Source: an uncultured Gemmatimonadota bacterium (GTDB lineage Bacteria; GCA-2686955). From it: a stretch of DNA of 64,000 nucleotides. The position numbers and the translations under genes were made by a program. Below the pieces are notes generated by a model. It saw nothing but the letters and a program-made list of their open reading frames with translations. It searched no databases and was not told where the DNA came from. The stretch spans positions 124,001 to 188,000 of the forward strand of contig CAZBBK010000001.1 in NCBI GenBank assembly GCA_964490075.1, written 5' to 3'. Positions 32,472 to 47,158 of this stretch are shown here, piece by piece (positions within the stretch are counted from its first letter, which is position 1; each line of letters begins with the position of its first letter).

Positions 32472-33982
32472 AGTACACCATTCCGCTCTGGTTGCTGCTG
32501 GCCGTCGCGGCGACACTTGCGCAGATCGCACCGCCCGCCGCCGGCGCCGACGCCGGCTCGGCCGACCACTCGTCGAGGACGATTTACACCTGCGGCATGC
32601 ACCCGCAGATCGTCCAGGACGCGCCGGGCTCCTGCCCGATCTGCGGCATGGATCTGACGTCCAAGGCCCTGACCGGCGGCGCCGTCGCCGCGGGCGCGGA
32701 TCCGCCACGCGCCGACCGCCGCATCAAGCACTGGGTGGCGCCGATGGATCCGAGCTTCATCTCCGATTCCCCCGGCAAGTCACCGATGGGCATGGACCTG
32801 GTGCCGGTCTACGAAGACCAGGGGAGCGGCTCCGGCGTGAGCATCGACCCCACCGTGGTGCAGAACATGGGGGTACGGGTGCGTCCCGCCCAACGCGCAA
32901 CGATCTTCCGCCAGGTGCGAACCATCGGCACCGTCGAGGTAGCCGAGGATCGGCTGTCGGTGGTCAATCTGCGCTACTCCGGCTGGGTGGAGCGAATCCA
33001 CGTCGACCAAACCGGAGTGTCGGTGGAAAAGGGACAGACGCTCTTCGATATCTACTCGCCGGAGCTGGTGAGCGCCCAGGAGGAGTACCTGCTGGCGCTG
33101 CGTGGCGCCACGCCCGACTCGCCGCTCGCCCGCAGCTCCCGCGCCCGGCTCGAGTTCTGGGATCTACCGCCCGCCACCATCGAACGCATCGCCGGCCGGT
33201 CGCGGGCCCAGCGCACTATCGCCGTGCGCGCCCCGCGCAGCGGTCACGTGTTGCACAAGAGCATCGTGCAGGGCGCCCGAGCGCAGGCCGGCGCCGATCT
33301 GTATCAAATCGCCGATCTGAGCACCGTCTGGGTCAACGCCGAGGTCTACGAGTTCGACGCGCCTTGGATACGAGTCGGCCAGCGCGCCACCATGGAGCTC
33401 TCTTTCGCGCCCGGCGAGACCTACCAAGGAAGTGTCGCGTACATCTACCCGACACTGAATCGACAGAGCCGCACTCTGACGGTGCGCCTGGAGTTCGCCA
33501 ATCCCGACCTGGCGCTCAAACCCGGGATGTTCGCCACGGTGCGGATCGAGACTCGTGGCAAGGAGAACGCTTTGGTAGTGCCGACCGAGTCGATCCTCCA
33601 CTCCGGCAACCGCCAACTGGTGTTCGTCGCGGTCGAGCTCGGTCGCTACGAGATGCGCGAGATCGTGCCCGGACTCGCCGGCGAAGGCGATCTGACCGAG
33701 GTGCTGGAGGGCCTGGAGCCCGGCGAACGGGTGGTGACATCGGGCCAGTTCTTGCTCGATTCGGAGAGTCAACTGAACGAAGCGGTGCAGAAATTGCTCG
33801 CCGCTCGTCTCCACGCCGGACGCGCGCGACCCGCGCCAGGCCGTGCCGACACCCTGCCCGTGGCCGCGGATCCGACCTCCTACTGGACTTGCGGCATGCA
33901 CCCCCAGGTGGTGGAGGAGGGCCCGGGAAGCTGCCCCATCTGCGGCATGGATCTCATCGAGCGCACCCAGGCGACGCCATGA
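32468..33982 (+). CDS. cusB: Cu/Ag efflux RND periplasmic adaptor with heavy-metal-binding domains
   Basis: YTCGMHPQI..PGSCPICGMDL-type motif at both ends, WVAPMDP..KSPMGMDLVP, YSPELVSAQEE, LKPGMF, FLLDSES. Confidence 0.9.
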   Translation: MKYTIPLWLLLAVAATLAQIAPPAAGADAGSADHSSRTIYTCGMHPQIVQDAPGSCPICGMDLTSKALTGGAVAAGADPPRADRRIKHWVAPMDPSFISDSPGKSPMGMDLVPVYEDQGSGSGVSIDPTVVQNMGVRVRPAQRATIFRQVRTIGTVEVAEDRLSVVNLRYSGWVERIHVDQTGVSVEKGQTLFDIYSPELVSAQEEYLLALRGATPDSPLARSSRARLEFWDLPPATIERIAGRSRAQRTIAVRAPRSGHVLHKSIVQGARAQAGADLYQIADLSTVWVNAEVYEFDAPWIRVGQRATMELSFAPGETYQGSVAYIYPTLNRQSRTLTVRLEFANPDLALKPGMFATVRIETRGKENALVVPTESILHSGNRQLVFVAVELGRYEMREIVPGLAGEGDLTEVLEGLEPGERVVTSGQFLLDSESQLNEAVQKLLAARLHAGRARPAPGRADTLPVAADPTSYWTCGMHPQVVEEGPGSCPICGMDLIERTQATP

Positions 33983-36900
33983 TCGAGTCCATCATCACCG
34001 CCTGCGTCCACAACCGCGTCTTCGTCCTCATGGTCACCGCGATCATCGTCGCGGCCGGCCTCTGGGCCCTGATCAGCACTCCGGTCGACGCGATTCCCGA
34101 TCTGAGCGACGTCCAGGTCATCGTCTACACCGACTACGCCGGCCAAGCGCCCCAGGTGGTCGAGGATCAGGTCACTTATCCCTTGACCACGGCCATGCTC
34201 GCCGTGCCCTTTGCCAAAGATATTCGTGGCTACTCCTTCTTCGGCTTCTCGATGGTGTACATCATTTTCGAGGACGGCACCGATCTCTACTGGGCACGCT
34301 CACGGGTTCTGGAGTACCTGAACTTCGCCCGCGGGCGACTACCCGCCGGTGTCGCCCCACAGCTCGGCCCCGACGCCACCGGAGTCGGCTGGGTCTACGA
34401 GTACACTCTCACCGACTTCAGTCCGCGCAGCGCGGTGCTGCGCGCGGCCCTCGATGTCGACGGCTCGGGCAAAGTCGAAGATCGAGAGCTGCCGGCGCCA
34501 CGGGCCACGACCGACAGCGCCCGCGGCACCTCGCCGGTGTACGCATCCGATCAGCTCGCAGCCCTGTTCCGCACCGAGGATCCGCCCGGCCCCGCGACGC
34601 CGGAGCGCTTCGTCGAGCGGTCGCTGCACTTCTTGTACGAGTCTTTCGACCGCGACCGCGACCGCCACATCTCGTCGGAGGAATTGTCGCTGGCGGCCAA
34701 CTTCGAAGGGATCGATCTCTCCGAGCTACGCTCGAAACAGGATTGGTACCTGCGCTACGAGCTAATGAGCGTGCCGGGTGTGGCCGAGGTGGCGTCGGTG
34801 GGCGGTTTCGTTCGCCAGTACCAGGTCGAAGTCGATCCCGAGAAGCTGCGCGCCTACGGAATCCCCCTGGCGCGGGTCAAGTCCGCCATCCAACGCAGCA
34901 ACATCGACGTCGGCGGGCGTCTGTTGGAGATGGGCGAGACCGAGTTCATGGTGCGCGGCAAGGGCTATTTGCAGTCTCTCGACGATCTGCGGCACATTCC
35001 GATCGGCGGCGACATGGTCAGCCACACGCCGGTGCTGCTCTCGCAGGTGGCCGACATCCATCTCGGCCCCGAGCTGCGCCGCGGCCTGGTAGAGATGAAC
35101 GGCACCGGCGAGGTGGTGACGGGAATCGTCATCATTCGCTTCGGCGAGAACGCCCTCAAGGTGATCGATCGCGTGAAGCAACGCATCGAGGAGCTCAAAC
35201 CGGGCCTGCCGCCGGGCGTAGAAATCCACGTCTCTTACGACCGCTCCAGTCTGATCCACCGCGCCATCGACACGCTGCGCACCAAGCTCCTGGAGGAGCT
35301 CCTCGTGGTGGCGCTGATCTGCATCGTCTTTCTGCTGCACTTCCGCTCCGCCTTCGTCGCTATCTTCACGTTGCCGGCCGGCATCTTGATGGCCTTCATC
35401 ATCATGCGCCTGATGGGCATCAACGCCAATATCATGAGCCTGGGCGGCATCGCCATCGCCATCGGGGTGATGGTCGACGCATCGGTGGTGATGGTCGAGA
35501 ACCTGCACAAGCACCGCGAACGAGATTCGGGCTCGAGTCAGGCGGAGTTGGTGATCGCCGCCTCCAAAGAGGTCGGGCCGGCACTCTTCTTCTCGCTGGT
35601 GATCGTTACGGTCAGCTTCGTTCCGGTGTTCAGTCTGGAGCAGCAGGAGGGACGTCTGTTCTCACCTCTGGCATTCACCAAGACCTTCGCCATGGGCTCC
35701 GCGGCGCTGCTCGCGGTGACGATCGTTCCGGTGCTGATGTACTACTTCGTGCGCGGCCGCATCCGCCCAGAGGCCCAGAACCCGATCAGCCGCTTCTTCA
35801 TTGCCATCTACCGGCCCTGCATCCGAGTGGTGCTGCGCTTTCCGAAAGCCACCATCTGCGTCGCCTTCGCCGCCACCGCGCTGACCTGGCTGCCCTATCG
35901 TTCCCTGGGCTCGGAGTTCATGCCTCCGCTCAATGAAGGGGATCTGCTCTACATGCCCACCACGCCGCCGGGGATCTCCATCACCAAAGCCAAGGAGCTC
36001 TTGCAGCAGACCGACAAGATCATCGTCTCTCATCCCCAGGTGGAGCATGTATTGGGCAAGGTCGGCCGCGCCGAGACCGCCACCGATCCGGCGCCGCTCT
36101 CCATGATCGAGACCACGATCATCTTGACTCCCCAGGAGACCTGGCCGCCGGGTCAGACGATCGAAGGCATCATCCGCGAGCTAGACGCCATGGTGCAGTT
36201 CCCGGGAGTCACCAACGCCTGGACGATGCCGATCCGCACCCGCATCGACATGCTGGCGACCGGCATCAAGACCCCGGTCGGCATCAAGCTCCTGGGCGAC
36301 GATCTACAAGTGCTCGGCCGGGTGGGGGAACGCATCGAGGCGGTGCTCCGAGAGCTGCCCAATACGCTCAGCGTCTACTCCGAACGGGTGGTTGGCGGCA
36401 ACTACATAGACATCGACATTCGGCGCCGCGACGCGGCGCGCTTCGGACTGACGATCGCCGACGTGCAGGAGATCATCATGAGCGCCATTGGCGGCATGAA
36501 CGTCACCTGGACCGTCGAGGGCCTGGAGCGCTATCCGGTCAATGTGCGCTACCCGCGCGAGCTGCGCAACGACATCGACAAGCTGCGTCGGGTGGCGGTT
36601 CCCACACCCATGGGACACACCATACCGCTGGCCTCGATCGCCGATCTCACAGTGGTCAAGGGCCCGCCGGCGATCAAGAGCGAAAACGCGCGCCGCACCG
36701 CCTGGATCTACGTCGATCTGAAGACCTCCGATGTCGGCGGCTATGTGCGAGAGGCGCGGCGCGCGGTGAGCTCCCAGGTGACGCTACCGGAGGGTGTGTC
36801 GCTCGCCTGGTCGGGGCAGTTCGAGTACATGCAGCGAGCCAACGCCCGGCTGTCGATCCTGGTGCCGCTGACTCTGGCGATCATCTTCGTGCTGCTCTAC

Positions 36901-37419
36901 GTACACTTTAGAAGTGTCGGCGAATCGCTGATCGTCATGTTGACCCTCCCCTTCGCGCTGGTCGGCGGTGTCTGGCTGATGTGGATCTTCGACTACAACC
37001 TCTCGGTCGCGGTGGCGGTCGGGTTCATCGCCCTGGCGGGTCTGGCGGCCGAAACCGGCGTGGTGATGCTGGTCTATCTCGACCAGAGCTATGCGCGGTG
37101 GCGCGCCGATGGGCGCCTGGTCTCTCTTGCCGATCTGAATAGTATCATCACCGAGGGCGCGGTCGATCGAGTGCGTCCCAAGCTGATGACCGTGGCCACC
37201 ACCACCATCGGACTGCTGCCGATCATGTTCGGCTCCGAGACCGGCACCCGCATCATGAAGCGCATCGCCGCGCCGATGGTCGGCGGACTGATCTCCTCGA
37301 CCCTTCTCACCCTGCTCATCATCCCCGCGATCTACCTGTTGTGGATGCGCGCCAAACACCGCCACGACCTGCCGCCGCTCGTGGCGCAGACCGAACCTAC
37401 GAAAGGGACCCAACGATGA
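33979..37419 (+). CDS. cusA: CusA/CzcA heavy-metal efflux RND transporter with EF-hand insertion
   Basis: DAIPDLSDVQVI, VEDQVTYP, GPDATGVGWVY, NIMSLGGIAIAIG, EFMPPLNEG, RIDMLATG, RPKLMT. Confidence 0.95.
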   Translation: MIESIITACVHNRVFVLMVTAIIVAAGLWALISTPVDAIPDLSDVQVIVYTDYAGQAPQVVEDQVTYPLTTAMLAVPFAKDIRGYSFFGFSMVYIIFEDGTDLYWARSRVLEYLNFARGRLPAGVAPQLGPDATGVGWVYEYTLTDFSPRSAVLRAALDVDGSGKVEDRELPAPRATTDSARGTSPVYASDQLAALFRTEDPPGPATPERFVERSLHFLYESFDRDRDRHISSEELSLAANFEGIDLSELRSKQDWYLRYELMSVPGVAEVASVGGFVRQYQVEVDPEKLRAYGIPLARVKSAIQRSNIDVGGRLLEMGETEFMVRGKGYLQSLDDLRHIPIGGDMVSHTPVLLSQVADIHLGPELRRGLVEMNGTGEVVTGIVIIRFGENALKVIDRVKQRIEELKPGLPPGVEIHVSYDRSSLIHRAIDTLRTKLLEELLVVALICIVFLLHFRSAFVAIFTLPAGILMAFIIMRLMGINANIMSLGGIAIAIGVMVDASVVMVENLHKHRERDSGSSQAELVIAASKEVGPALFFSLVIVTVSFVPVFSLEQQEGRLFSPLAFTKTFAMGSAALLAVTIVPVLMYYFVRGRIRPEAQNPISRFFIAIYRPCIRVVLRFPKATICVAFAATALTWLPYRSLGSEFMPPLNEGDLLYMPTTPPGISITKAKELLQQTDKIIVSHPQVEHVLGKVGRAETATDPAPLSMIETTIILTPQETWPPGQTIEGIIRELDAMVQFPGVTNAWTMPIRTRIDMLATGIKTPVGIKLLGDDLQVLGRVGERIEAVLRELPNTLSVYSERVVGGNYIDIDIRRRDAARFGLTIADVQEIIMSAIGGMNVTWTVEGLERYPVNVRYPRELRNDIDKLRRVAVPTPMGHTIPLASIADLTVVKGPPAIKSENARRTAWIYVDLKTSDVGGYVREARRAVSSQVTLPEGVSLAWSGQFEYMQRANARLSILVPLTLAIIFVLLYVHFRSVGESLIVMLTLPFALVGGVWLMWIFDYNLSVAVAVGFIALAGLAAETGVVMLVYLDQSYARWRADGRLVSLADLNSIITEGAVDRVRPKLMTVATTTIGLLPIMFGSETGTRIMKRIAAPMVGGLISSTLLTLLIIPAIYLLWMRAKHRHDLPPLVAQTEPTKGTQR

Positions 37420-37970
37420 AGTCAGCGCTGATCTCCCTGGTTGCTCTGGCCTTGCTCTCGGCTCCTCCCGCCGCCGCTGATGCAGGCCTGCTTGCCTTCG
37501 ACGCCAGCATGGCCCCGATCCTGCAGAGTTATCTGCAGGCCCACGAGGCATTGGCCAACGACACCACGAAAGGAGTGCAGGCCGCGGCCAAACGCATCTC
37601 CGATCTAAGCGCCGATCTGAAGGGCGCGACGGTCGCCGGCGAGCATGCGACCCACTATCGGCAGCTGCCAGAGAGGATCGGCCGCGCCGCCGCCACTCTG
37701 GCCGCGGCAACCGATCTCGCGACCGCTCGGGCGGCGTTCAAGGAGCTCTCGAAGCCGATGGCGATGTGGGGCACCATGTCGAAGCCGGCCGCGGTCGACG
37801 TGGTGTTCTGCTCGATGGCCAGGGGCAGCTGGCTACAGTCCGAGGGCGCGGTGCGCAACCCCTACTACGGCGCCAAGATGCTGCGCTGCGGCCAGGTGGT
37901 CGGCGGTGCTCGGCACGCGGCGGGCGCCACCACCGCCGAAGCCAAGGCGCACACTGATGGGCGCATGTAA
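37416..37970 (+). CDS. DUF3347-type periplasmic metal-binding accessory protein
   Basis: Signal peptide; AR.AF..LS, FCSMA.GSWLQ....RNPYYG..ML.CG. Confidence 0.8.
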   Translation: MKSALISLVALALLSAPPAAADAGLLAFDASMAPILQSYLQAHEALANDTTKGVQAAAKRISDLSADLKGATVAGEHATHYRQLPERIGRAAATLAAATDLATARAAFKELSKPMAMWGTMSKPAAVDVVFCSMARGSWLQSEGAVRNPYYGAKMLRCGQVVGGARHAAGATTAEAKAHTDGRM

Positions 37971-38042: not shown

Positions 38043-38279
38043 ATGACCCGCCTGCGCCAGCTCGCGCTCAACCGCGACGGATTCGCCTTCGACCCCTCCA
38101 CCGGCACCAGCTTCTCACTCAATCCGTCCGGTGTGGCGGTGCTGGAGGGACTGATGGGCGATCGCTCGACCGAGCAGATCGCGCGCGATCTTCGCGAGCG
38201 CTACCAGGTGTCGCTGGAAGAAGCGGTGCGCGATGTCGCCGACTTCGTCGACAGCCTGCGCGCCCACGATCTGCTGTGA
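38043..38279 (+). CDS. PqqD-family (RRE-like) small protein
   Basis: GAGGAG RBS; GF.FDP.TG.SFSLN..G..(helical)..Y.VS.EEA.RDV..F...L. Confidence 0.8.
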   Translation: MTRLRQLALNRDGFAFDPSTGTSFSLNPSGVAVLEGLMGDRSTEQIARDLRERYQVSLEEAVRDVADFVDSLRAHDLL

Positions 38280-39343
38280 GCGATCCAATGCCCGCCCCGC
38301 TGACGGTCGGCGTATCCGGCATCAACGCCGTGGACAATCCCGGGCCCGGCGTCGGGGTCGCGCGCAGCCTGCGCGAGGCCGAGGATCTCGACCTGCGCAT
38401 CGTCGGCCTGGCCTACGACGCCATGGAGCCCGGCATCTACATGGATTGGTTGCTCGATCGCTCCTTCGTGGTCCCTTACCCTTCGGCCGGACGCGACGCA
38501 TACATCGAGAGGTTGCGATACATCCAGTCGGTGGCCGGCCTCGATTTCATCATTCCGACGCTCGACACCGAGATGCCCTTCTACAGTCGCTGCCAGGGTG
38601 AGCTGGAGACACTCGGAATGCACTGCTTCGTGCCGACTCCCGAGATGTATCGGCTGCGCGGCAAGGACCGGTTGACCGAGGTCGCCGAGACCATCGGCAT
38701 CGAGCTGCCCGAAACGGAGGTGGTCTCCAGCCAAGAGGAGCTGGTGGTCGCGGTGGAGAAGGTCGGATTGCCGGTGATGATCAAGGGCGCTTTCTACCAG
38801 GCGCGGCGCGCCCACACCACCCAGGAGGCGCTCCAGCACTGCCACCGAATCGTCGCCGAATGGGGCTATCCGATCATTGTCCAGCAGGTGGTCTCGGGCG
38901 ACGAGCTCAACGTCGTCGCGGTCGGCGACGGTGTGGGAGGGTGTCTTGGCAGGGTGGCGATCCGCAAGATGTGGATCACCGAGCTCGGCAAGATGTGGAC
39001 CGGTGTCACGATTCACAATCAGGCCATTCTCCGGGCCAGCGACGCCTTCGCCCGCGCCTACCGGTGGCGCGGCCCCTTCGAGTTGGAATGCATCGCCAGC
39101 GCCGGTCGTCTCTACCTGGTCGAGATCAACCCGCGCTTTCCCGCTTGGTGCTACTTCGCGACCGGCGTCGGCCTCAATCTGCCGGCGCGCATGATCACCA
39201 CGGCGCTCGGCGGCCCGCTGTCGGCCGAAAGCGACTACCCGGCGGGGCGCCTGTTCATTCGGTACACTTATGAGCTGGTCACGCGAATGGAACAGTTTCA
39301 AAGGCTGGTCATTCGCGGCGAGACCGCGGAGGCCCAGCGATGA
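38276..39343 (+). CDS. ATP-grasp ligase (carbamoyl-phosphate-synthase-large-like)
   Basis: DNPGPG.GVARSL, IIPTLD.E, PVMIKG, IIVQQ, GPFELE, LVEINPRFPAW. Confidence 0.85.
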   Translation: MSDPMPAPLTVGVSGINAVDNPGPGVGVARSLREAEDLDLRIVGLAYDAMEPGIYMDWLLDRSFVVPYPSAGRDAYIERLRYIQSVAGLDFIIPTLDTEMPFYSRCQGELETLGMHCFVPTPEMYRLRGKDRLTEVAETIGIELPETEVVSSQEELVVAVEKVGLPVMIKGAFYQARRAHTTQEALQHCHRIVAEWGYPIIVQQVVSGDELNVVAVGDGVGGCLGRVAIRKMWITELGKMWTGVTIHNQAILRASDAFARAYRWRGPFELECIASAGRLYLVEINPRFPAWCYFATGVGLNLPARMITTALGGPLSAESDYPAGRLFIRYTYELVTRMEQFQRLVIRGETAEAQR

Positions 39344-40707
39344 CAACCGCTTATCAGAAGCCGGTCATCTCGCGGCTGGAAACCGGGCTGGTCAACAAGT
39401 ACGGCGCCCATCCGCTCTACGCCCGGCGGGTACGCACCAAGATCGACGGCGTGGCGATCGACGATCTGCTCGAGGCCCACGGCTCGCCGCTCTTCGTCTT
39501 CAGCGAGCGCAAGCTGCGGGAGAGCTACCGCTCGGTGCTGCACGCCTTCAACACGCGCTACCCGCACGTGGTCTCGGCCTGGTCGTACAAGACCAACTAC
39601 TTGCAGGCGATCTGCGCCATCCTGCACCAGGAGGGGGCGCTCGCCGAGGTGGTCTCGGAGTTCGAGTATCAGAAGGCCCGCAGTCTGGGCATTCAGGGCG
39701 ACTCGATCATCTTCAACGGCCCCTTCAAGCGCCGCGGCGCGCTCGAGCGCGCGGTGCGCGAAGGGGCCCGAATCCACGTCGATCACCTGGACGAGATCAC
39801 CGATCTGGAGTCGATCGCCGAGCGCGAGGACAGGACGATTCACCTGGGAATCCGTCTCAACATCGACACCGGGATCTTCCCGCAGTGGACCCGATTCGGT
39901 TTCAACCTGGAGAATGGTCAGGCGCTCGACGCGGCGCGGCGCATGCGCGCCGGGGGCAAGCTGATCATCGACAGCATCCACGCCCACATCGGTACCTTCA
40001 TTCTCGATCCCGCCGCCTACGGCAAGCAGACCGCCAAGATGGCGCAGTTCGCCCGCACGCTGCAAGAGGAGCTGGGATTCGAAGTCGAGATGATCGACAT
40101 CGGCGGCGGCTTCCCGTCGCGCAGCAAGCTCAAAGGCACCTACCTGCCGCCCGATATGGCTGTGCTGCCGGTGGACGACTATGCCGAGAAGATCACCGAA
40201 GCTCTCTATGAAAACCTGCAGCCGGGCTCGTTTCCCAAGCTGGTGCTCGAGACCGGCCGTGCCGTGGTGGACGAAGCGGGCTCTCTGGTTACGACAGTTT
40301 TCGCGGCCAAGCGGCTCCCGGATGGACGCAAGGCCTACGTCATGGACGCGGGCGTCAACACTCTTTTCACCTCGTTCTGGTACAAGTTCGACATCGCGCT
40401 CGGGCAGGAGCCGCGAGGCATGAACGAGGCGGCGCTGATCAACGGTCCGCTGTGCATGAACATCGATGTGCTCGACGAAGCGACAGAGCTGCCGCCGCTG
40501 CAGCGAGGAGATCGGCTGATCTTCTCGCCGGTGGGCGCCTACAACGTCACCCAGTGGATGCAATTCATCGAGTATCGGCCCAGCGTGGTGCTGATCACCG
40601 AGGACGGCTCCGTCGAGTTGATCCGGGAGGCGGAGAACCTGAGCGATATCGAGCGACGTGAACGCCTTCCCGATCGCCTGCGGCCGCCGGCGATCGACGG
40701 CGAGTGA
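39340..40707 (+). CDS. PLP-dependent diaminopimelate/ornithine decarboxylase-family (fold III) enzyme
   Basis: HGSPLFVF, WSYKTN (PLP Lys), IIFNGP.K, HAHIGT, IDIGGGF, LETGR, GPLCMNID, VGAY. Confidence 0.88.
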   Translation: MTTAYQKPVISRLETGLVNKYGAHPLYARRVRTKIDGVAIDDLLEAHGSPLFVFSERKLRESYRSVLHAFNTRYPHVVSAWSYKTNYLQAICAILHQEGALAEVVSEFEYQKARSLGIQGDSIIFNGPFKRRGALERAVREGARIHVDHLDEITDLESIAEREDRTIHLGIRLNIDTGIFPQWTRFGFNLENGQALDAARRMRAGGKLIIDSIHAHIGTFILDPAAYGKQTAKMAQFARTLQEELGFEVEMIDIGGGFPSRSKLKGTYLPPDMAVLPVDDYAEKITEALYENLQPGSFPKLVLETGRAVVDEAGSLVTTVFAAKRLPDGRKAYVMDAGVNTLFTSFWYKFDIALGQEPRGMNEAALINGPLCMNIDVLDEATELPPLQRGDRLIFSPVGAYNVTQWMQFIEYRPSVVLITEDGSVELIREAENLSDIERRERLPDRLRPPAIDGE

Positions 40708-40717
40708 GGCGCGGGTG

Positions 40718-42817
40718 ATGCGTGCCCACACCGTCGCGATCCTCGGCAGCTACAGCGAAGTGCTCTTCTATCGCGGCTGGCCGATGGGCCTCTTGTTGGC
40801 AACGGTGACACTCATCTCGCCCGACGTGGCCGGGGCGGGGCTGGTGGCGGTGGTCGCCGCCTACGCCTTCGCGCGCTTCATCGGCATGCAGGCGACCTTC
40901 CTCGAGTCTGGCTTCTACACTTACAACCCCCTGCTGGTCGGGCTGTCGATCGGCTACCTGTTCCAGCTCACGCCTTTGACGGCCTTCTTCGTGGTCGTGG
41001 CCGGGGTCTGCGCCTTCGTGGTGACCCACATAATGCACCACCTGCTCGGCTCCTTGCTGCGCCTGCCGATCCTGAGCGTGCCCTTCGTGCTGGTCAGCTC
41101 CACCGCCTACCTGGCAGCCTCGCAGTACACCAATCTCCATGTGCGGGGTCTGTATCCGGTCAGTCGAGGACCGGTCGGCACCGCCCTGCCGATGTGGCTC
41201 TCGGGGTTCTTCGAGTCTCTGGGCGCGATCTTCTTCATGCCTCACCTGGTCGCCGGGATCTGTATCGCCCTCGGCCTGCTCCTGGTGTCGCGCATTCTGC
41301 TGCTGCTGGCATTCACCGGCTATCTGGCGGGGGCGACGGTGCTGGCGCTGCTCGCGGGCTCCGCGCCGGCCGCGTTCTCCAATCCCAACGCTTTCAACTT
41401 CATCCTGATCGCCATGGCCCTCGGCGGGGTGTTCCTGGTGCCCTCGCCGCGCGCCTATTCGATCGCCATGATCGCGGTGGTGGTCTCCACGCTGCCCTTG
41501 AGCTCCACCGAAGTGTTCTGGTCGCAGTACGGCCTTCCGGCTTTTGCCCTGCCCTTCAACCTGGTGACGCTCACCTTCGTCTACCTACTAACGCTGGTGG
41601 ACCACCCGCTGGTCGCCCGCCCCGCGGGCGCCACACCGGAGGAGGCGCTCGATGCCTTCCTCGCCGGTCGCGACCGCTTCCCGGGCACACTGCGTACCCT
41701 CGCCCTGCCCTTCCACGGCGAGTGGTCGGTGTGGCAAGGATGCGACGGTCCCTGGACCCACCGGGGGCCGTGGCGGCACGCCTGCGACTTCGTGCTGCGA
41801 GGCGAGGACGGCAATACGTACCGCGGTCCGGGCGACCGGCTCGAACACTACCTGGCCTATCGCAAGCCGGTGCTGGCGCCGGTCCGGGGTCGGGTGGCGA
41901 AAATCGTCGCCGAGCTGCCCGACAACCCGGTGGGGGAAAGCGACCGACAACGCAGTTGGGGCAACCTGGTTATCCTGGCCGACGAGCGCGGCTTCTTCGT
42001 CGAGCTCTCGCACTTCGCACAAGGCTCGATTCGGGTCGTCGAAGGGCAATGGGTGGAGCGCGGCGCGCTGCTCGGTCTATGCGGCAACTCCGGGAACTCG
42101 CCCGAGCCGCATATCCACGTGCAGGTGCAAGCGACCGATCGCGTCGGGGCGGCGACCCTGCCCTTCAGCTTCGTCGCCTACCGCGCCGGTGATTCCTACC
42201 ACGGCAACGACATGCCCCTACAGGGCGAGCGGATCGCGACGCTGGCGCCCGAGCGCGACATGGAATCGCGGCTCGGATTCGTGCTGGACGAGCAGTTCGT
42301 CTTCGAAGTATCGCGCAATGGGCGGCCCGCCGGTCGAACGCAGCACCAGGTGCGCGCCGCTCACGACGGAACGCTCTACTTCGAGTCGGCGCGCGGCAGG
42401 CTCTTCTTCGGTCGCTTCGAAGACACATTTTACTGCCACCGAGTGGAAGGCGACGACCCCTGGTTGCGCACCCTCTTCCTGGCGGCGCCGCGGCTGCCCC
42501 TGGCGTTCCACGAAGGCCTGCGCTGGAGCGACCGGGTGCCGGCCGCCGCCGCCCGCGATGGGCTGCGCTCGTTGCTCTTCGATTTCCTACGCTCCTTTCA
42601 CCACGGCCTGGGGCGCGTCGACGTCGAGCTCGCATCCGCGGGGGATGCGGTGTTCGATGGCATAGTGCGTTCGCGGGCGCTGGCCATGGAGCGGTCGACG
42701 CGAGTCGAGATCCACCCGCGCCGGGGATTCCAGTCGATCCGTGTCGGCGAAATGCGGATGCAGCGGATCGAGGAGGCAGATCCCGTCGACGAAGACCAGC
42801 AGAGGAAGAGCACATGA
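40718..42817 (+). CDS. Urea-transporter-family membrane domain fused to M23 peptidase domain and C-terminal extension
   Basis: About 10 TM helices with YNPLLVGL, LS.PFV, FNFILIAMALGG, LPFN; then LPFHGEW.V.QG, THRG.W.HA.DF, PVLAPV.G, WGN.V, LSHF, GNSGNSPEPHIHVQ. Confidence 0.82.
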   Translation: MRAHTVAILGSYSEVLFYRGWPMGLLLATVTLISPDVAGAGLVAVVAAYAFARFIGMQATFLESGFYTYNPLLVGLSIGYLFQLTPLTAFFVVVAGVCAFVVTHIMHHLLGSLLRLPILSVPFVLVSSTAYLAASQYTNLHVRGLYPVSRGPVGTALPMWLSGFFESLGAIFFMPHLVAGICIALGLLLVSRILLLLAFTGYLAGATVLALLAGSAPAAFSNPNAFNFILIAMALGGVFLVPSPRAYSIAMIAVVVSTLPLSSTEVFWSQYGLPAFALPFNLVTLTFVYLLTLVDHPLVARPAGATPEEALDAFLAGRDRFPGTLRTLALPFHGEWSVWQGCDGPWTHRGPWRHACDFVLRGEDGNTYRGPGDRLEHYLAYRKPVLAPVRGRVAKIVAELPDNPVGESDRQRSWGNLVILADERGFFVELSHFAQGSIRVVEGQWVERGALLGLCGNSGNSPEPHIHVQVQATDRVGAATLPFSFVAYRAGDSYHGNDMPLQGERIATLAPERDMESRLGFVLDEQFVFEVSRNGRPAGRTQHQVRAAHDGTLYFESARGRLFFGRFEDTFYCHRVEGDDPWLRTLFLAAPRLPLAFHEGLRWSDRVPAAAARDGLRSLLFDFLRSFHHGLGRVDVELASAGDAVFDGIVRSRALAMERSTRVEIHPRRGFQSIRVGEMRMQRIEEADPVDEDQQRKST

Positions 42818-43698
42818 CTCGCCGCTTCGTTCTTGTCGCGATCGGTCTGCTCTGGGGAGCTTGCGACCCGCTGCCGTGCCCCCGGGCATGCGCGGGCGAT
42901 CTCTCGGCGCTGGTCTACGGCGCCGGCACCAGCTACGGCACCTCTCGAGCCAAGGAGTCGGCCGCCACCGCCGGCATCTACGCCGCCGCCAGCGCTGCTC
43001 CCGGACATGCCCTGGAGCTCGACCTGGCACGCACCGCCATCGCAGCGCGAGTCGACAGCGCGAACACGGAACAGATCGATCTGACAGTCTCTTGGATCCG
43101 TACCCTGCCGGGCCGCCGTACCCGCGCCGGCGTCCACTGGATCGAGTCGAGCGACCCCTGGAGCGACGCGGCGCTCACCCTCTTCGCATCGGAGCTGGCA
43201 GGAAGCGCTCATCGATCCCACGCCGACCTGGAGCTCGCATACACCCGCTACCCGCACTATTCGAGCGGGCTCGGCGTGCTGCAGATCTCGCCGGGAATCG
43301 GTCGCGCCATCTATGACGCCACCGGCGGCGGCGGTCTCCACGGGTCGCTGCGGATGCACTACATTCGGCTGCTCGATCCGGTGATCGACGGCGCCCACGG
43401 CGATCTCGACCGCAACATGATCTCGGTCGAGGCCGATCTGGCCTTCCTGCGCCCTCCCTGGAGCCTCCGCTGCACCGTCTGGAGCGGCCGCCAGTCCTTC
43501 GCCGTGCGGCGCTCCGGCTTCCTGGTGTTCAATCTCTCCGAACTGCACAGCGGAGGCTATGGAGCCACTCTGCGGCGCCGCCTCGGCGCTGGCTTCACGG
43601 CGAGTGTGGGCGCCTTCCGCGAGCAGTTTCGCGAGCTAGGCTTCGACGACCCCCTCGCGTCGACCACGTTCTCGGCGACGCTCGGAATTCTGCCATGA
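42814..43698 (+). CDS. Hypothetical exported protein, probable outer-membrane beta-barrel
   Basis: N-terminal signal; alternating amphipathic strands (ALELDLART, DLELAYTRY, LRMHYIRL, SVEADLAF, FTASVGAF). Confidence 0.5.
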   Translation: MTRRFVLVAIGLLWGACDPLPCPRACAGDLSALVYGAGTSYGTSRAKESAATAGIYAAASAAPGHALELDLARTAIAARVDSANTEQIDLTVSWIRTLPGRRTRAGVHWIESSDPWSDAALTLFASELAGSAHRSHADLELAYTRYPHYSSGLGVLQISPGIGRAIYDATGGGGLHGSLRMHYIRLLDPVIDGAHGDLDRNMISVEADLAFLRPPWSLRCTVWSGRQSFAVRRSGFLVFNLSELHSGGYGATLRRRLGAGFTASVGAFREQFRELGFDDPLASTTFSATLGILP

Positions 43699-44363
43699 GA
43701 CAGTCACCAGCCCGGGCAAGCTCCTCGATCATCGCAACCATCGCGCTGTCGGGCCTGCTCCTGTCGGCGACGACCTGGGGACAGACCGCGCCTCCCGTTC
43801 CGCTCTCCGCCGCCCAGATCGCCGACGCCTACCAGCGTTCCTACGGCTACGAACGCTCTCAGGACCACGCCAACGCCTTGCGCGCCCTGGCGCCGGTTCA
43901 CGCCGCCAATCCCGACGACTACACCGTCAACTTGAGGCTCGGCTGGTTGAGCTACCTGGCCGGCCACCACGCCGACGCAACCGACCACTACGCGAGTGCG
44001 ATCCGCGCCGCGCCGCAGAGCATCGAAGCGAAGCTCGGCCGGCTGCTGCCCTTGCTGGCCCAGGAGCGCTACGCCTCCGCCGAGGCGGCGGCTCTGCAGA
44101 TCGTCGCGCTCGATCACTACAGTTACTATGGCAACCTGCGCCTGGCCCACGCGCTGCGCATGCAGGGCAAACTGGAGCAGGCCGAGCGGATCGCGGCGAA
44201 GATGGCAGGCGCCTACCCGACCGACACACAGTTTCTCACCGAGCTGGCGCTGATCGACGTGGCGCGCGACGATCTCGCGGCGGCGAGCCGGCGCTTCGCG
44301 CACATCCTGCTGCTTGATCCGGAGAACCCGATCGCCCGGGCCGAACTTCAGGATCCGGAGTAG
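43695..44363 (+). CDS. Exported tetratricopeptide-repeat protein
   Basis: Signal peptide; Y..NLRLGWL.Y..G, EAKLG..LPL, YYGNLRLA..L...G, LLLDPEN. Confidence 0.8.
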   Translation: MRQSPARASSSIIATIALSGLLLSATTWGQTAPPVPLSAAQIADAYQRSYGYERSQDHANALRALAPVHAANPDDYTVNLRLGWLSYLAGHHADATDHYASAIRAAPQSIEAKLGRLLPLLAQERYASAEAAALQIVALDHYSYYGNLRLAHALRMQGKLEQAERIAAKMAGAYPTDTQFLTELALIDVARDDLAAASRRFAHILLLDPENPIARAELQDPE

Positions 44364-44499: not shown

Positions 44500-46032
44500 T
44501 CAATCGATGTATCCCAGGGCCCTCAGCTCTTGGATCATCAGGGAATCCAGTTCCACCCGCGCCCCCGCCTGGTCGCGACTCCGGCGCGCCGTCCACGCCA
44601 GCAGGTGGTCCCGCATGCGTTGTTCTCGCTGAGCTTCCGCGACCGCGAGGTCACGCTGCTCATGTGGATCGTCGCTCAGATTGAAGAGCTCGAGCCCCTT
44701 GTGCCGATATACATCCGGCGCAGGCTTGTAGAGCTCTGCGGTGGAGACGATGATCTTCCAAGGCCATTCGATCATAGCCAGGGCCGAGCGATTGGCGTGC
44801 TCGATGATGATGGGCTGGGGGAGGGCCTCGATCGTGTCGAGACAGGCGCCGACCAGGCTTCGGCCGGGCAGGGCGCTCGTCGCCTCCAGCTCCGCGAGCT
44901 CCAGGATTGTCGGCAACAGATCGATTCCCTGTACGGGCGTGTCCACGCGGCGCCCTTCCGGTAGTTGGCCCTGCCACGAGAGCAGCATGGGAACGCGAAC
45001 GCAGGCTTCGTAGATGCTGCGATGCGCAGCGTACACGCCGTCCACGTCGAAATTCTCCCCGTGATCGCCGACTACCACGATCAAAGGGGCGGGATCACCT
45101 TCCTCGGAGCTGGAACGTAATCCCTCGAGGAGCCTGCCAATCACCGCGTCCGTTTGGGCAATCTCGCCGTCATAGAGCGCTTCGATGCACGCCCGATCCG
45201 CCTGTGAAAGGAGCCGGTGGACCTGGTCGAGATCGCGTCGTGGATCGCGGTGCTGATAGGTACTCTCAAAAAGTCTGTGTTCCGAGGCAGTCGAATTCGG
45301 AAGTCGTCGACGTGCCTCACTGGGATCGATCACCCGAGCGTGCAGATCACGGAGTGTCGAGAGCCGTGGCGTCCAATGATCCACGAAGCGGTTCGCAAGG
45401 GTGGAATCCGGTGCATAGGGCGTGTGCGGTTCGAAGAGGTGGACCCAGATCAGATAGGCGTGGCCACGGTTTCGCCTGACCCAACGCAGCGCCCGTTGCG
45501 CCGTGCGTTCGCCGGGGCGGGTCCAACGATCGGCACCGTAGTGCGTGGGGCCGGTTTGGTGGCGAACGTTGTCGAAGTGATCGAATCCCGGATCGAATCC
45601 GGATCTGGGGCCGTTGAGATGCAGTACGCTCACGAAAGCAGCGGTCCGATGTCCGGCGGCCTGGAAGTACTGGGCGAGAGTAGGCACACCCAGGTCATCC
45701 CAACGCTGCCCGTTGTCGTGCAGTCCGTGGTCGCTCACATGTTGACCACTCAAGATCGAGGCGTGCGAGGGAACGGTGGAGTTGGATTGGCTGTAGGCCC
45801 GAGTGAAGAGGACACCAGTCGCGGCCAGGGAGTCGAGGATCGGACTGGTTGGATGCTCGTAGCCGTAAGCCGAAACGTGGTCGGCACGAATGGTGTCGAT
45901 GGTCACGAGGACGACCGGAGAACGAGGATCCACCCCGCAGGAGACCAGGAAGAAGAGAGCGGTGGGAATCAAGATCAGACGGCCCCACGTCGGGCGCGGC
46001 AACGTGGTGGTCGAACTCCGAGATCTGCACAT
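44500..46032 (-). CDS. Sulfatase-like hydrolase/transferase lipoprotein (TxPSH motif)
   Basis: Lipobox LVSC; LVTIDTIRADH..YGY, STVPSHASILSG, HLFEPHTPY, GDHGE, LRALGYID. Confidence 0.85.
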   Translation of the reverse strand: MCRSRSSTTTLPRPTWGRLILIPTALFFLVSCGVDPRSPVVLVTIDTIRADHVSAYGYEHPTSPILDSLAATGVLFTRAYSQSNSTVPSHASILSGQHVSDHGLHDNGQRWDDLGVPTLAQYFQAAGHRTAAFVSVLHLNGPRSGFDPGFDHFDNVRHQTGPTHYGADRWTRPGERTAQRALRWVRRNRGHAYLIWVHLFEPHTPYAPDSTLANRFVDHWTPRLSTLRDLHARVIDPSEARRRLPNSTASEHRLFESTYQHRDPRRDLDQVHRLLSQADRACIEALYDGEIAQTDAVIGRLLEGLRSSSEEGDPAPLIVVVGDHGENFDVDGVYAAHRSIYEACVRVPMLLSWQGQLPEGRRVDTPVQGIDLLPTILELAELEATSALPGRSLVGACLDTIEALPQPIIIEHANRSALAMIEWPWKIIVSTAELYKPAPDVYRHKGLELFNLSDDPHEQRDLAVAEAQREQRMRDHLLAWTARRSRDQAGARVELDSLMIQELRALGYID

Positions 46033-46109
46033 GATGAGCTCCGTCTCTCTAATCCGGGTACGACGTGGGGACGGCCCGGCACGCCAGTGCACAGGGGCGG
46101 CCGCATCCT

Positions 46110-46590
46110 TCAATCGAGGTAGCCGAGGGCACCAAGAAGTCCCTGAAGCCCTCGCTCCGGGCCAGGCTGGCGATCCGGGGCAATGTCTCTGGAGAGCGGA
46201 ACAGCCGCCTCTCCGCGTCGGATCGGATGCGCTTCGAGGTGCGTCGGGCTGAACGCATCGGTCAGAACTCGGGCATCGAGATCGGCGGGAACCGGGAGTC
46301 CAAGCAGGTGTAGGATCGTGGGGGGAAGATCGGTGATTTCTGCTTCCGCCAGTGTCTTGCCGGCACGAATGCCCTCACCTCTGGCGACCAGGATGCCGTT
46401 CATGCGGTGCACGCCGCCTCTGAACTCGCTGAAAACCGTGTCGCCTGCGACCGCGCCCGAGGCAACGACAGACCAGTCCTTGAACTCCGCGATCAGGTCG
46501 GGTGCCTCATCGGCGTGGGGGCCGTGGAAGATCTCGGCGCCCTCGCGGATCCGTTCGCAGAGGGGCGCGCCGGTCGCGGGGGGGCGTATG
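46110..46590 (-). pseudogene. C-terminal fragment of a type I phosphodiesterase/nucleotide pyrophosphatase-family protein
   Basis: PATG.P, GPH.DEAPDL, GVHRMNGIL.A.G.GI, ITDL.PTIL.LLG.PVP.DLD.RVL, ALGYLD; catalytic N-terminus missing. Confidence 0.65.
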
Positions 46591-47158
46591 ACACACTCCC
46601 ATTCGGCCTCGGTAGGCAGACGATAGCCCTCGGCCTGGTGGTTCCACAGCACCTGATCGCCGTCGACCTGGTAGGCCGGCGAGAGCCCCATGCGCAGGGA
46701 GAGAGCGTTGCAGTAGAGGACGGCATCCAGCCAGCTGACCCCCTCCACGGGGCAGGACTGGCAGCTCTGGTAGCTGCTCGGGCTGTCGCCCATGATGGAG
46801 AGCGCCACTGGGCCTGGGTCACCTCGGTCTGGGACAGATAGAAGGCTTGGGTCAGCCGCACGCCGTGTTGGCGCTCATCCATGTCGCGACCCAGCTCATC
46901 TTCCGGTGAGCCCATAATGAAGTCGCCGGGCTCGATTCTGATCAGAGGCTCTGGCGTGGGCAGGGCGGCCTCGTAGTGATTGGCGGCGGTGGCGAGGGGC
47001 TCGGCACCCAAGTCGTCGCCGCTCCATGGCCAAGATGCCAGAACGAGGACGCAAGCGAGGGCGACAGATCTGCGCCAGGTGCTTCCTCCTCGGTCGCGGT
47101 GCATCACCGATCCCTCGTCACGGTTCTCGCTGCCACTGATGGTCCCGTCTCCTGTCAT
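46591..47158 (-). pseudogene. Frameshifted, truncated formylglycine-generating-enzyme (SUMF1/FGE-sulfatase) domain gene
   Basis: GDFIMGSP..E.GR..DE.QH.V.LT..F...TEVTQAQW | 2-nt insertion near 46800 | SIMG..PS...PVEGVSW.DA..YCN.LS...YRLPTEAEWE, then ends. Confidence 0.75.

Follow-up and report, generated by a model that had tools for sequence, protein, structure and literature searches.

A six-gene cassette joining putative amide-forming and decarboxylating enzymes to a urea-transporter-fold/M23 fusion protein and a predicted outer-membrane barrel recurs across diderm bacterial phyla

A stretch of 64,000 nucleotides from an uncultured Gemmatimonadota bacterium (assembly GCA_964490075.1, contig CAZBBK010000001.1, positions 124,001 to 188,000; hereafter the window) carries six genes at positions 38043 to 44363. 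They encode a PqqD-like protein, an ATP-grasp ligase, a pyridoxal phosphate (PLP)-dependent decarboxylase, a urea transporter (UT)-fold channel fused to an M23 metallopeptidase, a predicted beta-barrel and a tetratricopeptide repeat (TPR) protein. This set recurs across many phyla far beyond chance, and it is a self-contained, horizontally spread unit of diderm bacteria. Gene order, conservation, the folds of the products, the separation of the decarboxylase from LysA, the conservation of catalytic residues and the swap of the enzyme set in one lineage were all computed here. The families of the parts are known, but the system matches no described pathway, and its function is inferred. As the best explanation we propose, tentatively and with a little less than even confidence, that the cassette makes and exports a small amide or amine derived from an amino acid, through ligation, decarboxylation, and trimming or gating by the M23 domain at the channel. 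The statement in a preliminary description of this DNA that no pathway had been assigned to the gene set agrees with our survey of the full-text literature, which, supplements and subscription-only papers lying outside its scope, returned no paper on it.

With the fusion protein alone as query, no locus was retrieved from the species collection, and a scan based on an alignment of 23 homologues from a protein search then yielded 284 encoding stretches in the species records, of which 80 loci were kept. Counted by tblastn, on contigs many of which are short, all six genes were present at 43 of the 80 loci and stood in the same order and on the same strand at 40, which bears out the joint conservation across phyla on which the preliminary description depended. 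The complete set was found at 38 of the 52 loci with at least 3 kb of sequence upstream and 2.2 kb downstream of the fusion gene, and the PqqD, ATP-grasp and decarboxylase genes occurred together at 54 of the 64 loci with 3 kb upstream; tblastn detected the PqqD gene at 58 and the TPR gene at 64 of 81 loci. Clustering of open reading frames (ORFs) of at least 50 aa from the 80 loci recovered the fusion gene at 73, the decarboxylase at 61, the ATP-grasp gene at 60, the TPR gene at 58, the PqqD gene at 56 and the barrel gene at 51, and no seventh gene that recurs with the cassette. The commonest true neighbour family was present at 7 of the 80 loci, and the other comparably spread clusters were off-frame shadows of the six genes. 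Going by their record titles, the 80 loci belong to Gemmatimonadota, Rhodothermales, Calditrichota, Ignavibacteria/Kapaibacteria/Melioribacter, Verrucomicrobiota, Lentisphaerae, Planctomycetota, Aquificota (Persephonella), Desulfobacterota-type lineages, Nitrospinia, Cyanobacteriota, Chlamydiales, Gammaproteobacteria and several candidate phyla. The complete 1.5-Mb genome G024, from another phylum, holds the set with 37-59% identity for five of the genes and 23% for the barrel; within the phylum of the window, the fusion gene is present in two of the five genomes of the collection.

The six genes in the window are co-oriented and mostly overlap by 4 nt (38276/38279, 39340/39343, 42814/42817 and 43695/43698), an arrangement already given in the preliminary description and confirmed here from the ORF coordinates (Table 1). 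The fusion gene was listed as an ORF of 719 aa starting from a GTG (40658-42817); its most likely start is the ATG at 40718, which fits the alignment of orthologues and lies 10 nt beyond the decarboxylase stop at 40707. A GGAGA is found 7 nt upstream of the PqqD ATG, the GC content of the cassette (0.64-0.69) is the same as that of its flanks, and a promoter and terminator scan gave a count of sites no higher than in shuffled sequence. All six products score under the curated cut-off of every NCBIfam model and are therefore without a name in the NCBI curated library.

Table 1. Genes of the cassette and domains of the fusion protein, in positions of the window
Feature	Position	Strand	Basis
PqqD-like small protein, 78 aa	38043..38279	+	Pfam PF05402
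ATP-grasp ligase, 355 aa, uncurated family	38276..39343	+	weak Pfam/NCBIfam matches, 2pn1
Fold-III (alanine-racemase-fold) PLP decarboxylase, 455 aa, FigC-like	39340..40707	+	Pfam, 7kh2
Three-part membrane protein, 699 aa	40718..42817	+	Pfam UT and M23, model
UT-fold channel part of the three-part protein	about 40736-41587	+	
M23 metallopeptidase part of the three-part protein	about 41690-42229	+	
Beta domain of the three-part protein, possible half-barrel	about 42263-42778	+	
Predicted 14-strand outer-membrane beta-barrel with signal peptide, 294 aa	42814..43698	+	AlphaFold2, Foldseek
Secreted TPR protein, 222 aa	43695..44363	+	TPR Pfam families, N-terminal hydrophobic signal-like segment

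The decarboxylase belongs to the ornithine/diaminopimelate (DAP)/arginine decarboxylase families (Orn_Arg_deC_N, 3e-29; Orn_DAP_Arg_deC, 2.9e-13), and scores 209.5 bits on lysA (TIGR01048), below the cut-off of 297.9, and 208.1 bits on FslC (NF041039), below the cut-off of 500. The closest solved structure is that of FigC, an N-citrylornithine decarboxylase (7kh2, 1.7e-55); other solved relatives are DAP decarboxylase (DAPDC; 1twi, 3.8e-37), D-ornithine/lysine decarboxylase (7e-29), 7ru7 (3.8e-24) and BtrK (2j66, 1e-23). The preliminary description had named as a way of being wrong that the enzyme is simply the only LysA of its genome. We reject that identity on account of the score below the cut-off and of LysA-like genes elsewhere: genome G000 has a second, more LysA-like gene on contig C53 (232 bits on lysA, 54.5 bits on FslC), and G024 has a separate LysA (518.3 bits) far from its cassette, whose own enzyme scores 221.6 bits on lysA. 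The C53 gene of G000 (L001, G000:C53:10972-15111) is also under the lysA cut-off of 297.9, so that its assignment to lysine synthesis is tentative. After it comes an asparagine-synthase-like gene that weakly matches a macrolactam cyclase (6.6e-13, under the cut-off).

Residues of the cassette enzyme were mapped on FigC through a HMMER alignment in which a constant offset of 20 reproduces C354, M355, H357, T327, T330, Y331, R387 and N389. The roles of these residues, and the binding of the side-chain amine by an acidic residue next to the catalytic Cys in DAPDC and ornithine decarboxylase, are taken from passages of PMC7857480. In the cassette enzyme the catalytic Cys is followed by Met (CMNID), as in FigC, and among 62 sequences each position of this stretch is at least 95% conserved. 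Where FigC has the citrate contacts H357, R387 and N389, the cassette enzyme has I, Q and M; it retains T327 and Y331 and has W for T330. A citryl-amino-acid (siderophore) substrate is rejected, with the citrate contacts not kept and the FslC score below the cut-off. These residues suggest that the substrate would be an alpha-amino acid with neither a free amine nor citrate at its distal end, the group there being probably neutral, for instance amide-linked. Ahead of the FigC-homologous core, residues 1-28 (39340-39423) form an N-terminal extension in which KPxI and NKYG motifs are conserved. FigC and DAPDC have no counterpart to it in the part that aligns, and it is a candidate docking peptide for the PqqD-like protein.

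The displacement of the enzyme set in marine Gammaproteobacteria is a new finding of the present analysis. Five loci, from Shewanella (L057, L062, L064), a Moraxellaceae metagenome-assembled genome (MAG; L070) and Psychromonas (L072), carry the fusion and TPR genes and have no PqqD, cassette-type ATP-grasp or fold-III decarboxylase gene within 10 kb. Directly 3' of the fusion and TPR genes they have three different cytoplasmic genes, for a fold-I decarboxylase of 896-912 aa that matches Mycobacterium tuberculosis Rv2531c (9n0o, 5.7e-174), an ATP-grasp protein of 500-510 aa (NF005096, a family named 'biotin carboxylase'; 479 bits, cut-off 684) and a C45 acyltransferase/hydrolase (158.7 bits, cut-off 85). 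The two ATP-grasp proteins are alike only at the level of the fold (hhalign probability 22.5%). Two gammaproteobacterial genomes lack the cassette-type ATP-grasp, the best scores being 22-24 bits for CarB-sized ORFs as against 598.8 bits in G000 and 589.7 bits in G024, which served as controls. In Shewanella, a secreted divergent homologue of the barrel (296 aa; hhalign 93.6%, E 2.1e-07) lies further on, followed by a second TPR gene. As two enzyme sets are found with one envelope module, that module would need an ATP-grasp ligase and an amino acid decarboxylase, and not PqqD.

Passages of PMC13506015 report Rv2531c to be an L-glutamate decarboxylase, and link K406, T606, R576, R718 and N731 to glutamate recognition; a structure of the protein is described in PMC12329521. 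All five residues are identical in the decarboxylase of the Psychromonas locus (constant offset 14), and we therefore propose a glutamate-derived unit. A decarboxylated building block of the gamma-aminobutyrate (GABA) type is the single most likely candidate, although as a specific identification it is doubtful.

The PqqD-like protein has a clear PqqD fold, that of a recognition element of ribosomally made peptides that carry post-translational modifications (RiPPs), with 57.2 bits on PF05402 (2.1e-15) against a cut-off of 23.4. It remains below the cut-off of every NCBIfam PqqD subfamily, the best being the lasso-peptide PqqD chaperones. The alignment of 57 sequences displays a conserved N-terminal LAxNxEGFxFDPxTGxS motif and a hydrophobic or basic C-terminus (..RxxRLL), and no conserved terminal Glu or Asp or thiol end. 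Amino-group carrier proteins of the LysW/LysX pathways are small proteins with a conserved acidic C-terminal attachment residue, and a LysW-like carrier role was rejected on the absence of such a C-terminus. The ligase matches four Pfam ATP-grasp families, all below their cut-offs (1.6e-05 for ATPgrasp_Ter, the best, to 7e-03), and the PRK12767-type 'carbamoyl phosphate synthase-like' NCBIfam with 70 bits (1.7e-19), against cut-offs of 218-390. Its best solved relative is 2pn1 (4.3e-11), PurD and CarB being weak, so that by sequence we assign the 355-aa protein to the ATP-grasp fold, in an uncurated subfamily. Its mean column identity over 26 orthologues from many phyla is 68%.

Prediction of a PqqD/ATP-grasp complex, which the preliminary description had suggested, gave a score of 0.37 (runs 0.37, 0.45 and 0.36), compared with 0.00 for the best of three controls; contacts agreed at 100% between runs, and the partner pLDDT was at least 82. 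Of 157 solved complexes, 116 reach the mark applied, as do 2 of 215 mismatched pairs, counts that hold only roughly here, where our own alignments were used; at scores of 0.60 or below lie just 18 of those 157 complexes, plus both mismatched pairs that passed. The prediction thus lends weak support to a pairing of the two proteins, and the PqqD-like protein may assist the ligase as a partner or adaptor instead of reading a precursor peptide encoded in the cassette.

A different role for this pair would follow if the cassette were a RiPP-like or scaffold-peptide route, in which PqqD would present a peptide whose gene lies elsewhere in the genome, the ATP-grasp enzyme would add an amino acid to it through the side chain, the decarboxylase would turn this into an amine, the M23 domain would serve as the peptidase for the leader or scaffold, and export of the product would fall to the envelope module. 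The PqqD fold, with its nearest subfamily among lasso-peptide chaperones, the 4-nt overlap of the PqqD and ATP-grasp genes, the weakly supported complex and a metallopeptidase in the same operon speak for such a route. It is confronted with two small-ORF searches on which we rejected a cis-encoded precursor: no conserved ORF was found upstream of PqqD at the 56 loci with a clustered PqqD ORF, and, at the fetched loci with cassette genes, no ORF of 18-70 aa within 3 kb of the cassette was conserved in any phylum group among 4047 small ORFs clustered, the clusters obtained being antisense shadow ORFs of lineage-specific genes. The gammaproteobacterial variant dispenses with PqqD, and an identity of the ATP-grasp protein of 55-67% across phyla fits a fixed small substrate better than variable peptides. 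We regard a RiPP-like route as distinctly unlikely, and the 'modified peptide' that the preliminary description had offered as one of two products is weakened by the same lack of a conserved precursor ORF and by the variant without PqqD. A second PqqD-like gene of 98 aa in genome G000 (L004, G000:C17:52788-55961) adjoins a radical-SAM enzyme gene, with a class-V aminotransferase gene nearby, and looks like part of an ordinary RiPP-type maturase unrelated to the cassette.

In the fusion protein, residues 7-290 make up a full UT fold (PF03253, 1e-57, 196 bits against a cut-off of 25; dvUT 3k3f, 1e-16) in which both LPxxS/TxPF pore segments are present, and which scores 107.9 bits on yut (TIGR03441) without reaching its cut-off of 274.6. 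Passages of PMC11589576 describe a urea recognition and transfer motif Q(Pb)-T(5b)-T(5a)-Q(Pa) in UTs. Among 74 sequences of the cassette type, Q(Pa) is replaced by E in 60 and by D in 7, T(5a) by S in 69, and Q(Pb) by A in 56, S in 11 and T in 5, whereas T(5b) is T in 58 and A in 16, the protein of the window having A. Such changes at the urea-recognition positions make it unlikely that the protein is a plain urea channel.

The M23 domain (PF01551, 7.3e-11, 42.6 bits against 28.7; residues about 325-504) superposes on LytM domains with a structural Z of 14.2 and a root-mean-square deviation (rmsd) of 2.6-5.2 Å over 124-135 residues, and its fold matches (Foldseek E 1.3e-06) are all peptidoglycan M23/LytM domains. 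H348, D357, H432, H465 and H467 are invariant in all 74 sequences; we take these five residues to be the M23 HxxxD and HxH motifs, the first with an unusual H-x8-D spacing. The model of residues 300-699 (pLDDT 90.3, pTM 0.86) further contains, at about residues 516-687, an antiparallel beta domain with inserted helices. Its best match is 4fvs, a Parabacteroides lipoprotein without known function (Z 9.1, rmsd 3.8 Å, 149 residues), followed by the ApoB and vitellogenin lipid-binding barrels (Z 8.4-8.5) and MucB/LolA-type folds (Z 5.8-6.0), where the stated background of the tool is Z 7-8; the model gives only a hint of a ligand-binding half-barrel. A search for shorter proteins representing split forms of the fusion gave mostly contig-end fragments, the whole ones being secreted stand-alone M23 relatives, and no true split form emerged from it.

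Solved eukaryotic UTs have both termini inside the cell, according to passages of PMC11589576. The fusion protein has no hydrophobic segment past residue 320, and a tally of Lys and Arg over the alignment, with helix bounds set by eye, gave about 6.8 in the 'in' loops and 2.8 in the 'out' loops. On these three grounds, the missing later transmembrane segment, the intracellular UT termini and the charge tally, the M23 half is predicted with reasonable confidence to lie on the cytoplasmic face and not in the periplasm.

This placement bears on two further explanations. If the M23 and beta half were periplasmic, it could act on peptidoglycan or a lipoprotein, the cytoplasmic enzymes supplying a diamine or a modified stem-peptide precursor for remodelling of the envelope. 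Such a role would accord with the signal peptides of stand-alone relatives of the M23 subtype, with the exclusively peptidoglycan-type fold matches of the domain, with the likeness of the C-terminal domain to lipoprotein and LolA-like folds, and with the relationship of the decarboxylase to DAP decarboxylases. It would also accord with a distant UT-M23 paralogue in genome G020 that stands beside genes for a Kdo transferase and a heptosyltransferase. Homology to UT proteins with intracellular ends, the lack of an extra membrane segment and the charge tally argue against it, as do the decarboxylase, devoid of the acidic residue by the catalytic Cys that binds the side-chain amine of DAP or ornithine, and the absence of other cell-wall genes conserved nearby. 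Envelope remodelling is improbable on this balance. The G020 fusion itself (L016 7847-10033, minus strand, contig C19; 728 aa, 28% identity), which also adjoins two ABC ATPase genes and has none of the other cassette genes around it, was not counted as a cassette because of its different gene context; it may represent a second use of the architecture, linked to lipopolysaccharide-core genes.

UT proteins are bidirectional channels that usually serve uptake, and a cytoplasmic peptidase at the inner mouth of the channel would also suit a salvage route. The barrel, the TPR protein and the channel would let in a small amide or peptide, which the M23 domain would cut and the decarboxylase and the ligase would then convert. 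The 14-strand barrels OmpG and CymA, to which the cassette barrel is similar (see below), are uptake pores. Among the genes conserved with the cassette, though, there is none for a regulator, a binding protein or downstream catabolism, and an ATP-consuming ligase with a PqqD-like adaptor is a hallmark of biosynthesis. Retention of a ligase and decarboxylase pair through a non-orthologous displacement would be unusual for catabolism, and we consider uptake quite improbable.

The outer part of the envelope module is supported by fold prediction. The 294-aa protein has no Pfam or NCBIfam match, and its AlphaFold2 model, made with 30 orthologues, shows a signal helix (residues 2-15) followed by 14 strands (pLDDT 90.3, pTM 0.86). 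The top Foldseek matches are the 14-strand barrels OmpG and CymA and the barrel of BcsC (E about 4e-07; TM 0.5-0.6, with 0.53-0.61 for OmpG and CymA), and the PelBC barrel is also among the matches. The outer-membrane-type beta-barrel that had been surmised for the product of the gene at 42814 is thus upheld in prediction. The TPR protein matches TPR_19 (2e-09), TPR_14 (8.9e-09) and several other TPR families, and the verrucomicrobial barrel gene product, 484 aa long, begins with TPR repeats, as in porins of the PgaA/BcsC type. In Verrucomicrobia and relatives (7 loci, with L055 14242-15723 and its homologues), the TPR gene is directly followed by a gene for a protein of about 500 aa with a Peptidase_S74 (endosialidase chaperone) domain, and then by one for a family-less 300-aa protein; both look like lineage-specific additions.

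Such a scaffold had led the preliminary description to propose synthase-dependent secretion of a polymer, here a linear polyamide or oligoamide. The ATP-grasp enzyme and the decarboxylase would act iteratively, for example by gamma-glutamylation of an amino end followed by alpha-decarboxylation to yield GABA units, and the side-chain-free chain would be threaded through the UT slot, trimmed by the M23 domain and guided by the TPR protein to the barrel. BtrJ and BtrK can reportedly alternate in this way on one growing chain, and M23 enzymes typically prefer glycine-like chains free of side chains. In AlgK/AlgE, PgaA, BcsC and PelB/C the scaffold at the outer membrane is likewise a TPR protein with a dedicated barrel; the two are fused in Verrucomicrobia, and the fold matches include the BcsC and PelBC barrels. 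BtrJ and BtrK constitute a pair of an ATP-grasp enzyme and a fold-III decarboxylase (passages of PMC7857480), BtrK being a detectable relative of the cassette enzyme, and the variant decarboxylase keeps the glutamate-recognition residues. On the other side, the cassette has no polymerase-like or processive synthase domain other than the single 355-aa ATP-grasp protein, has no gene for a carrier protein or primer, and would have a cytoplasmic M23 domain meeting the chain before its export. No UT pore is known to us to conduct a chain, and we know of no such polymer from any of the carrier organisms. We judge a secreted polyamide unlikely. In its most specific form, the UT-fold channel would have been recruited to translocate, across the inner membrane, a polyamide free of side chains such as oligo- or poly-gamma-aminobutyrate in a new kind of secretion system spread over many diderm phyla, the chain being made by alternating gamma-glutamylation by the ATP-grasp enzyme and PLP-dependent decarboxylation, cut to length by the M23 domain and passed by the TPR adaptor to the 14-strand pore, that is, a protein-templated 'nylon-like' biopolymer; this version is very improbable.

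A valid model must account for the intact M23 site and the altered pore as well as for the exchange of one enzyme set for another, and we return here to the small exported amide or amine. In the cytoplasm, the ATP-grasp enzyme would form an amide bond, with the PqqD-like protein acting as its partner or adaptor, and the FigC-like decarboxylase would remove the alpha-carboxylate of an amino acid with a neutral side chain, for instance one already amide-linked, following the ligase and decarboxylase logic of FigA/FigC and BtrJ/BtrK. The intact M23 amidase on the probably cytoplasmic C-terminus of the channel would cut the product or a carrier-bound precursor. The product would then pass the UT-fold channel, with its altered urea-recognition positions and an acidic residue at the inner site, cross the periplasm with the TPR protein and leave through the dedicated 14-strand barrel. 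The layout that the preliminary description had drawn, with enzymes in the cytoplasm, a peptidase-bearing channel in the inner membrane, a TPR protein and a pore in the outer membrane, stands in this model, the peptidase being probably on the cytoplasmic side.

Several points weigh against this explanation. The substrate, the product, the direction of transport, the side of the peptidase and the role of PqqD are all inferred. UT pores are sized for urea-like solutes and may be too narrow for a product as large as an amino acid. Proteins of the PqqD fold normally have a peptide ligand, both small-ORF searches ended without a precursor, and no fusion of PqqD to another cassette protein was seen at E <= 1e-8 among longer proteins, in a weak search. 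The peptidase half could be periplasmic if the UT domain were inverted: the nearest stand-alone relatives of its M23 subtype (213 aa and 339 aa) have signal peptides, lipoprotein and LolA-like folds such as those resembled by the beta domain, at a Z of 9.1 that is near background, are usually periplasmic, and the helix bounds behind the charge tally were drawn by eye. The glutamate-derived unit leans on one characterised homologue of the variant enzyme, and in the main type of decarboxylase no Arg that could bind a carboxylate is evident at the FigC positions. The barrel was undetected by tblastn at six loci with enough flanking sequence, a search that likewise missed the Shewanella barrel. 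The fusion gene, finally, stands alone at two loci: in a Persephonella MAG (L085 9959-12055) it comes after genes for a class-III aminotransferase and a family-less 218-aa protein, and in a Nitrospinia MAG (L039 5874-7937) it lies between those for a response regulator and a SIS-CBS protein.

If the proposed function is correct, a widespread envelope-spanning route, with a urea-channel fold fused to a peptidase as its inner-membrane part, is distributed over Gemmatimonadota-like lineages, the FCB group (Fibrobacterota, Chlorobiota and Bacteroidota), Verrucomicrobiota, Planctomycetota, Aquificota, Desulfobacterota and marine Gammaproteobacteria. It would represent a new use for the UT/SLC14 fold and a new substrate class for FigC-like decarboxylases, and would imply that many environmental bacteria make a metabolite, possibly a polymer, that is not yet described. 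The product must be reachable both by the set of PqqD, the cassette ATP-grasp and the FigC-like enzyme, and by the set of the Rv2531c-like enzyme, the second ATP-grasp and the C45 protein. Psychromonas aquimarina, Shewanella surugensis and Melioribacter roseus are cultured carriers.

None of the genes flanking the cassette in the window recurs with it. Upstream lies an ORF for an AcrB/CusA-type resistance-nodulation-division pump (33364-37419), which has a long N-terminal extension as listed and a weak EF-hand-like stretch at residues 420-454, and which is followed by a DUF3347 gene (37341-37970). The latter was rejected as a seventh member of the cassette: it recurs at 1 of 81 loci and belongs with the AcrB-type pump. 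Downstream, a sulfatase gene (44500-46113, minus strand) overlaps by 4 nt a short gene similar to formylglycine-generating enzyme (FGE)-sulfatase proteins (46110-46808, minus strand); this pair is convergent to the cassette and not conserved with it.

The cassette matches no system that we could name; the defining features of LysA, FigC, yut-type UTs, RiPP clusters and synthase-dependent secretion each fail. With urea transporters (UT/SLC14, dvUT, Yut) it shares the full UT fold, but three of the four Q-T-T-Q positions are changed in most members, some 400 residues of M23 and beta domain are fused to the channel, and no urease genes are part of the cassette. RiPP maturation dependent on a PqqD-type recognition element likewise employs a stand-alone PqqD-fold protein translationally coupled to a modifying enzyme, whereas here no precursor gene was found, the ligase is not of a known RiPP ATP-grasp family, and one variant lacks PqqD; a survey of graspetides, in the passages available of PMC8939145, mentions PqqD by analogy only. 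The scaffolds of AlgK/AlgE, PgaA, BcsC and PelB/PelC resemble the cassette in their periplasmic TPR protein and dedicated barrel, which are fused in some lineages. The difference is that neither a glycosyltransferase-type synthase nor a c-di-GMP receptor is found among the six genes or their conserved neighbours, that the cassette barrel has 14 strands in the model, and that the inner-membrane component is a UT-fold channel with a peptidase. BtrI, BtrJ and BtrK, which make the side chain of butirosin, are the counterpart of an ATP-grasp enzyme, a fold-III decarboxylase and a small third protein encoded together, and BtrK decarboxylates glutamate held through its gamma-carboxyl (passages of PMC7857480). 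The small protein of the cassette, however, is PqqD-like and no acyl carrier protein, with no conserved acidic or thiol end, aminoglycoside genes are absent, and the cassette has an envelope module. The FigA/FigC (FslA/FslC) rhizoferrin route of Francisella, with SbnH-type steps, uses an NIS (non-ribosomal-peptide-synthetase-independent siderophore) synthetase rather than an ATP-grasp ligase, and the cassette differs from it in its changed citrate contacts and in having the UT-M23 fusion, TPR and barrel genes and no major facilitator superfamily exporter or iron-related gene. What the two have in common is an amide-forming ligase paired with an alanine-racemase-fold decarboxylase for an amino acid with an acylated side chain, and FigC, the nearest solved relative (7kh2), shares with the cassette enzyme a Cys-Met pair in place of Cys-Asp/Glu.

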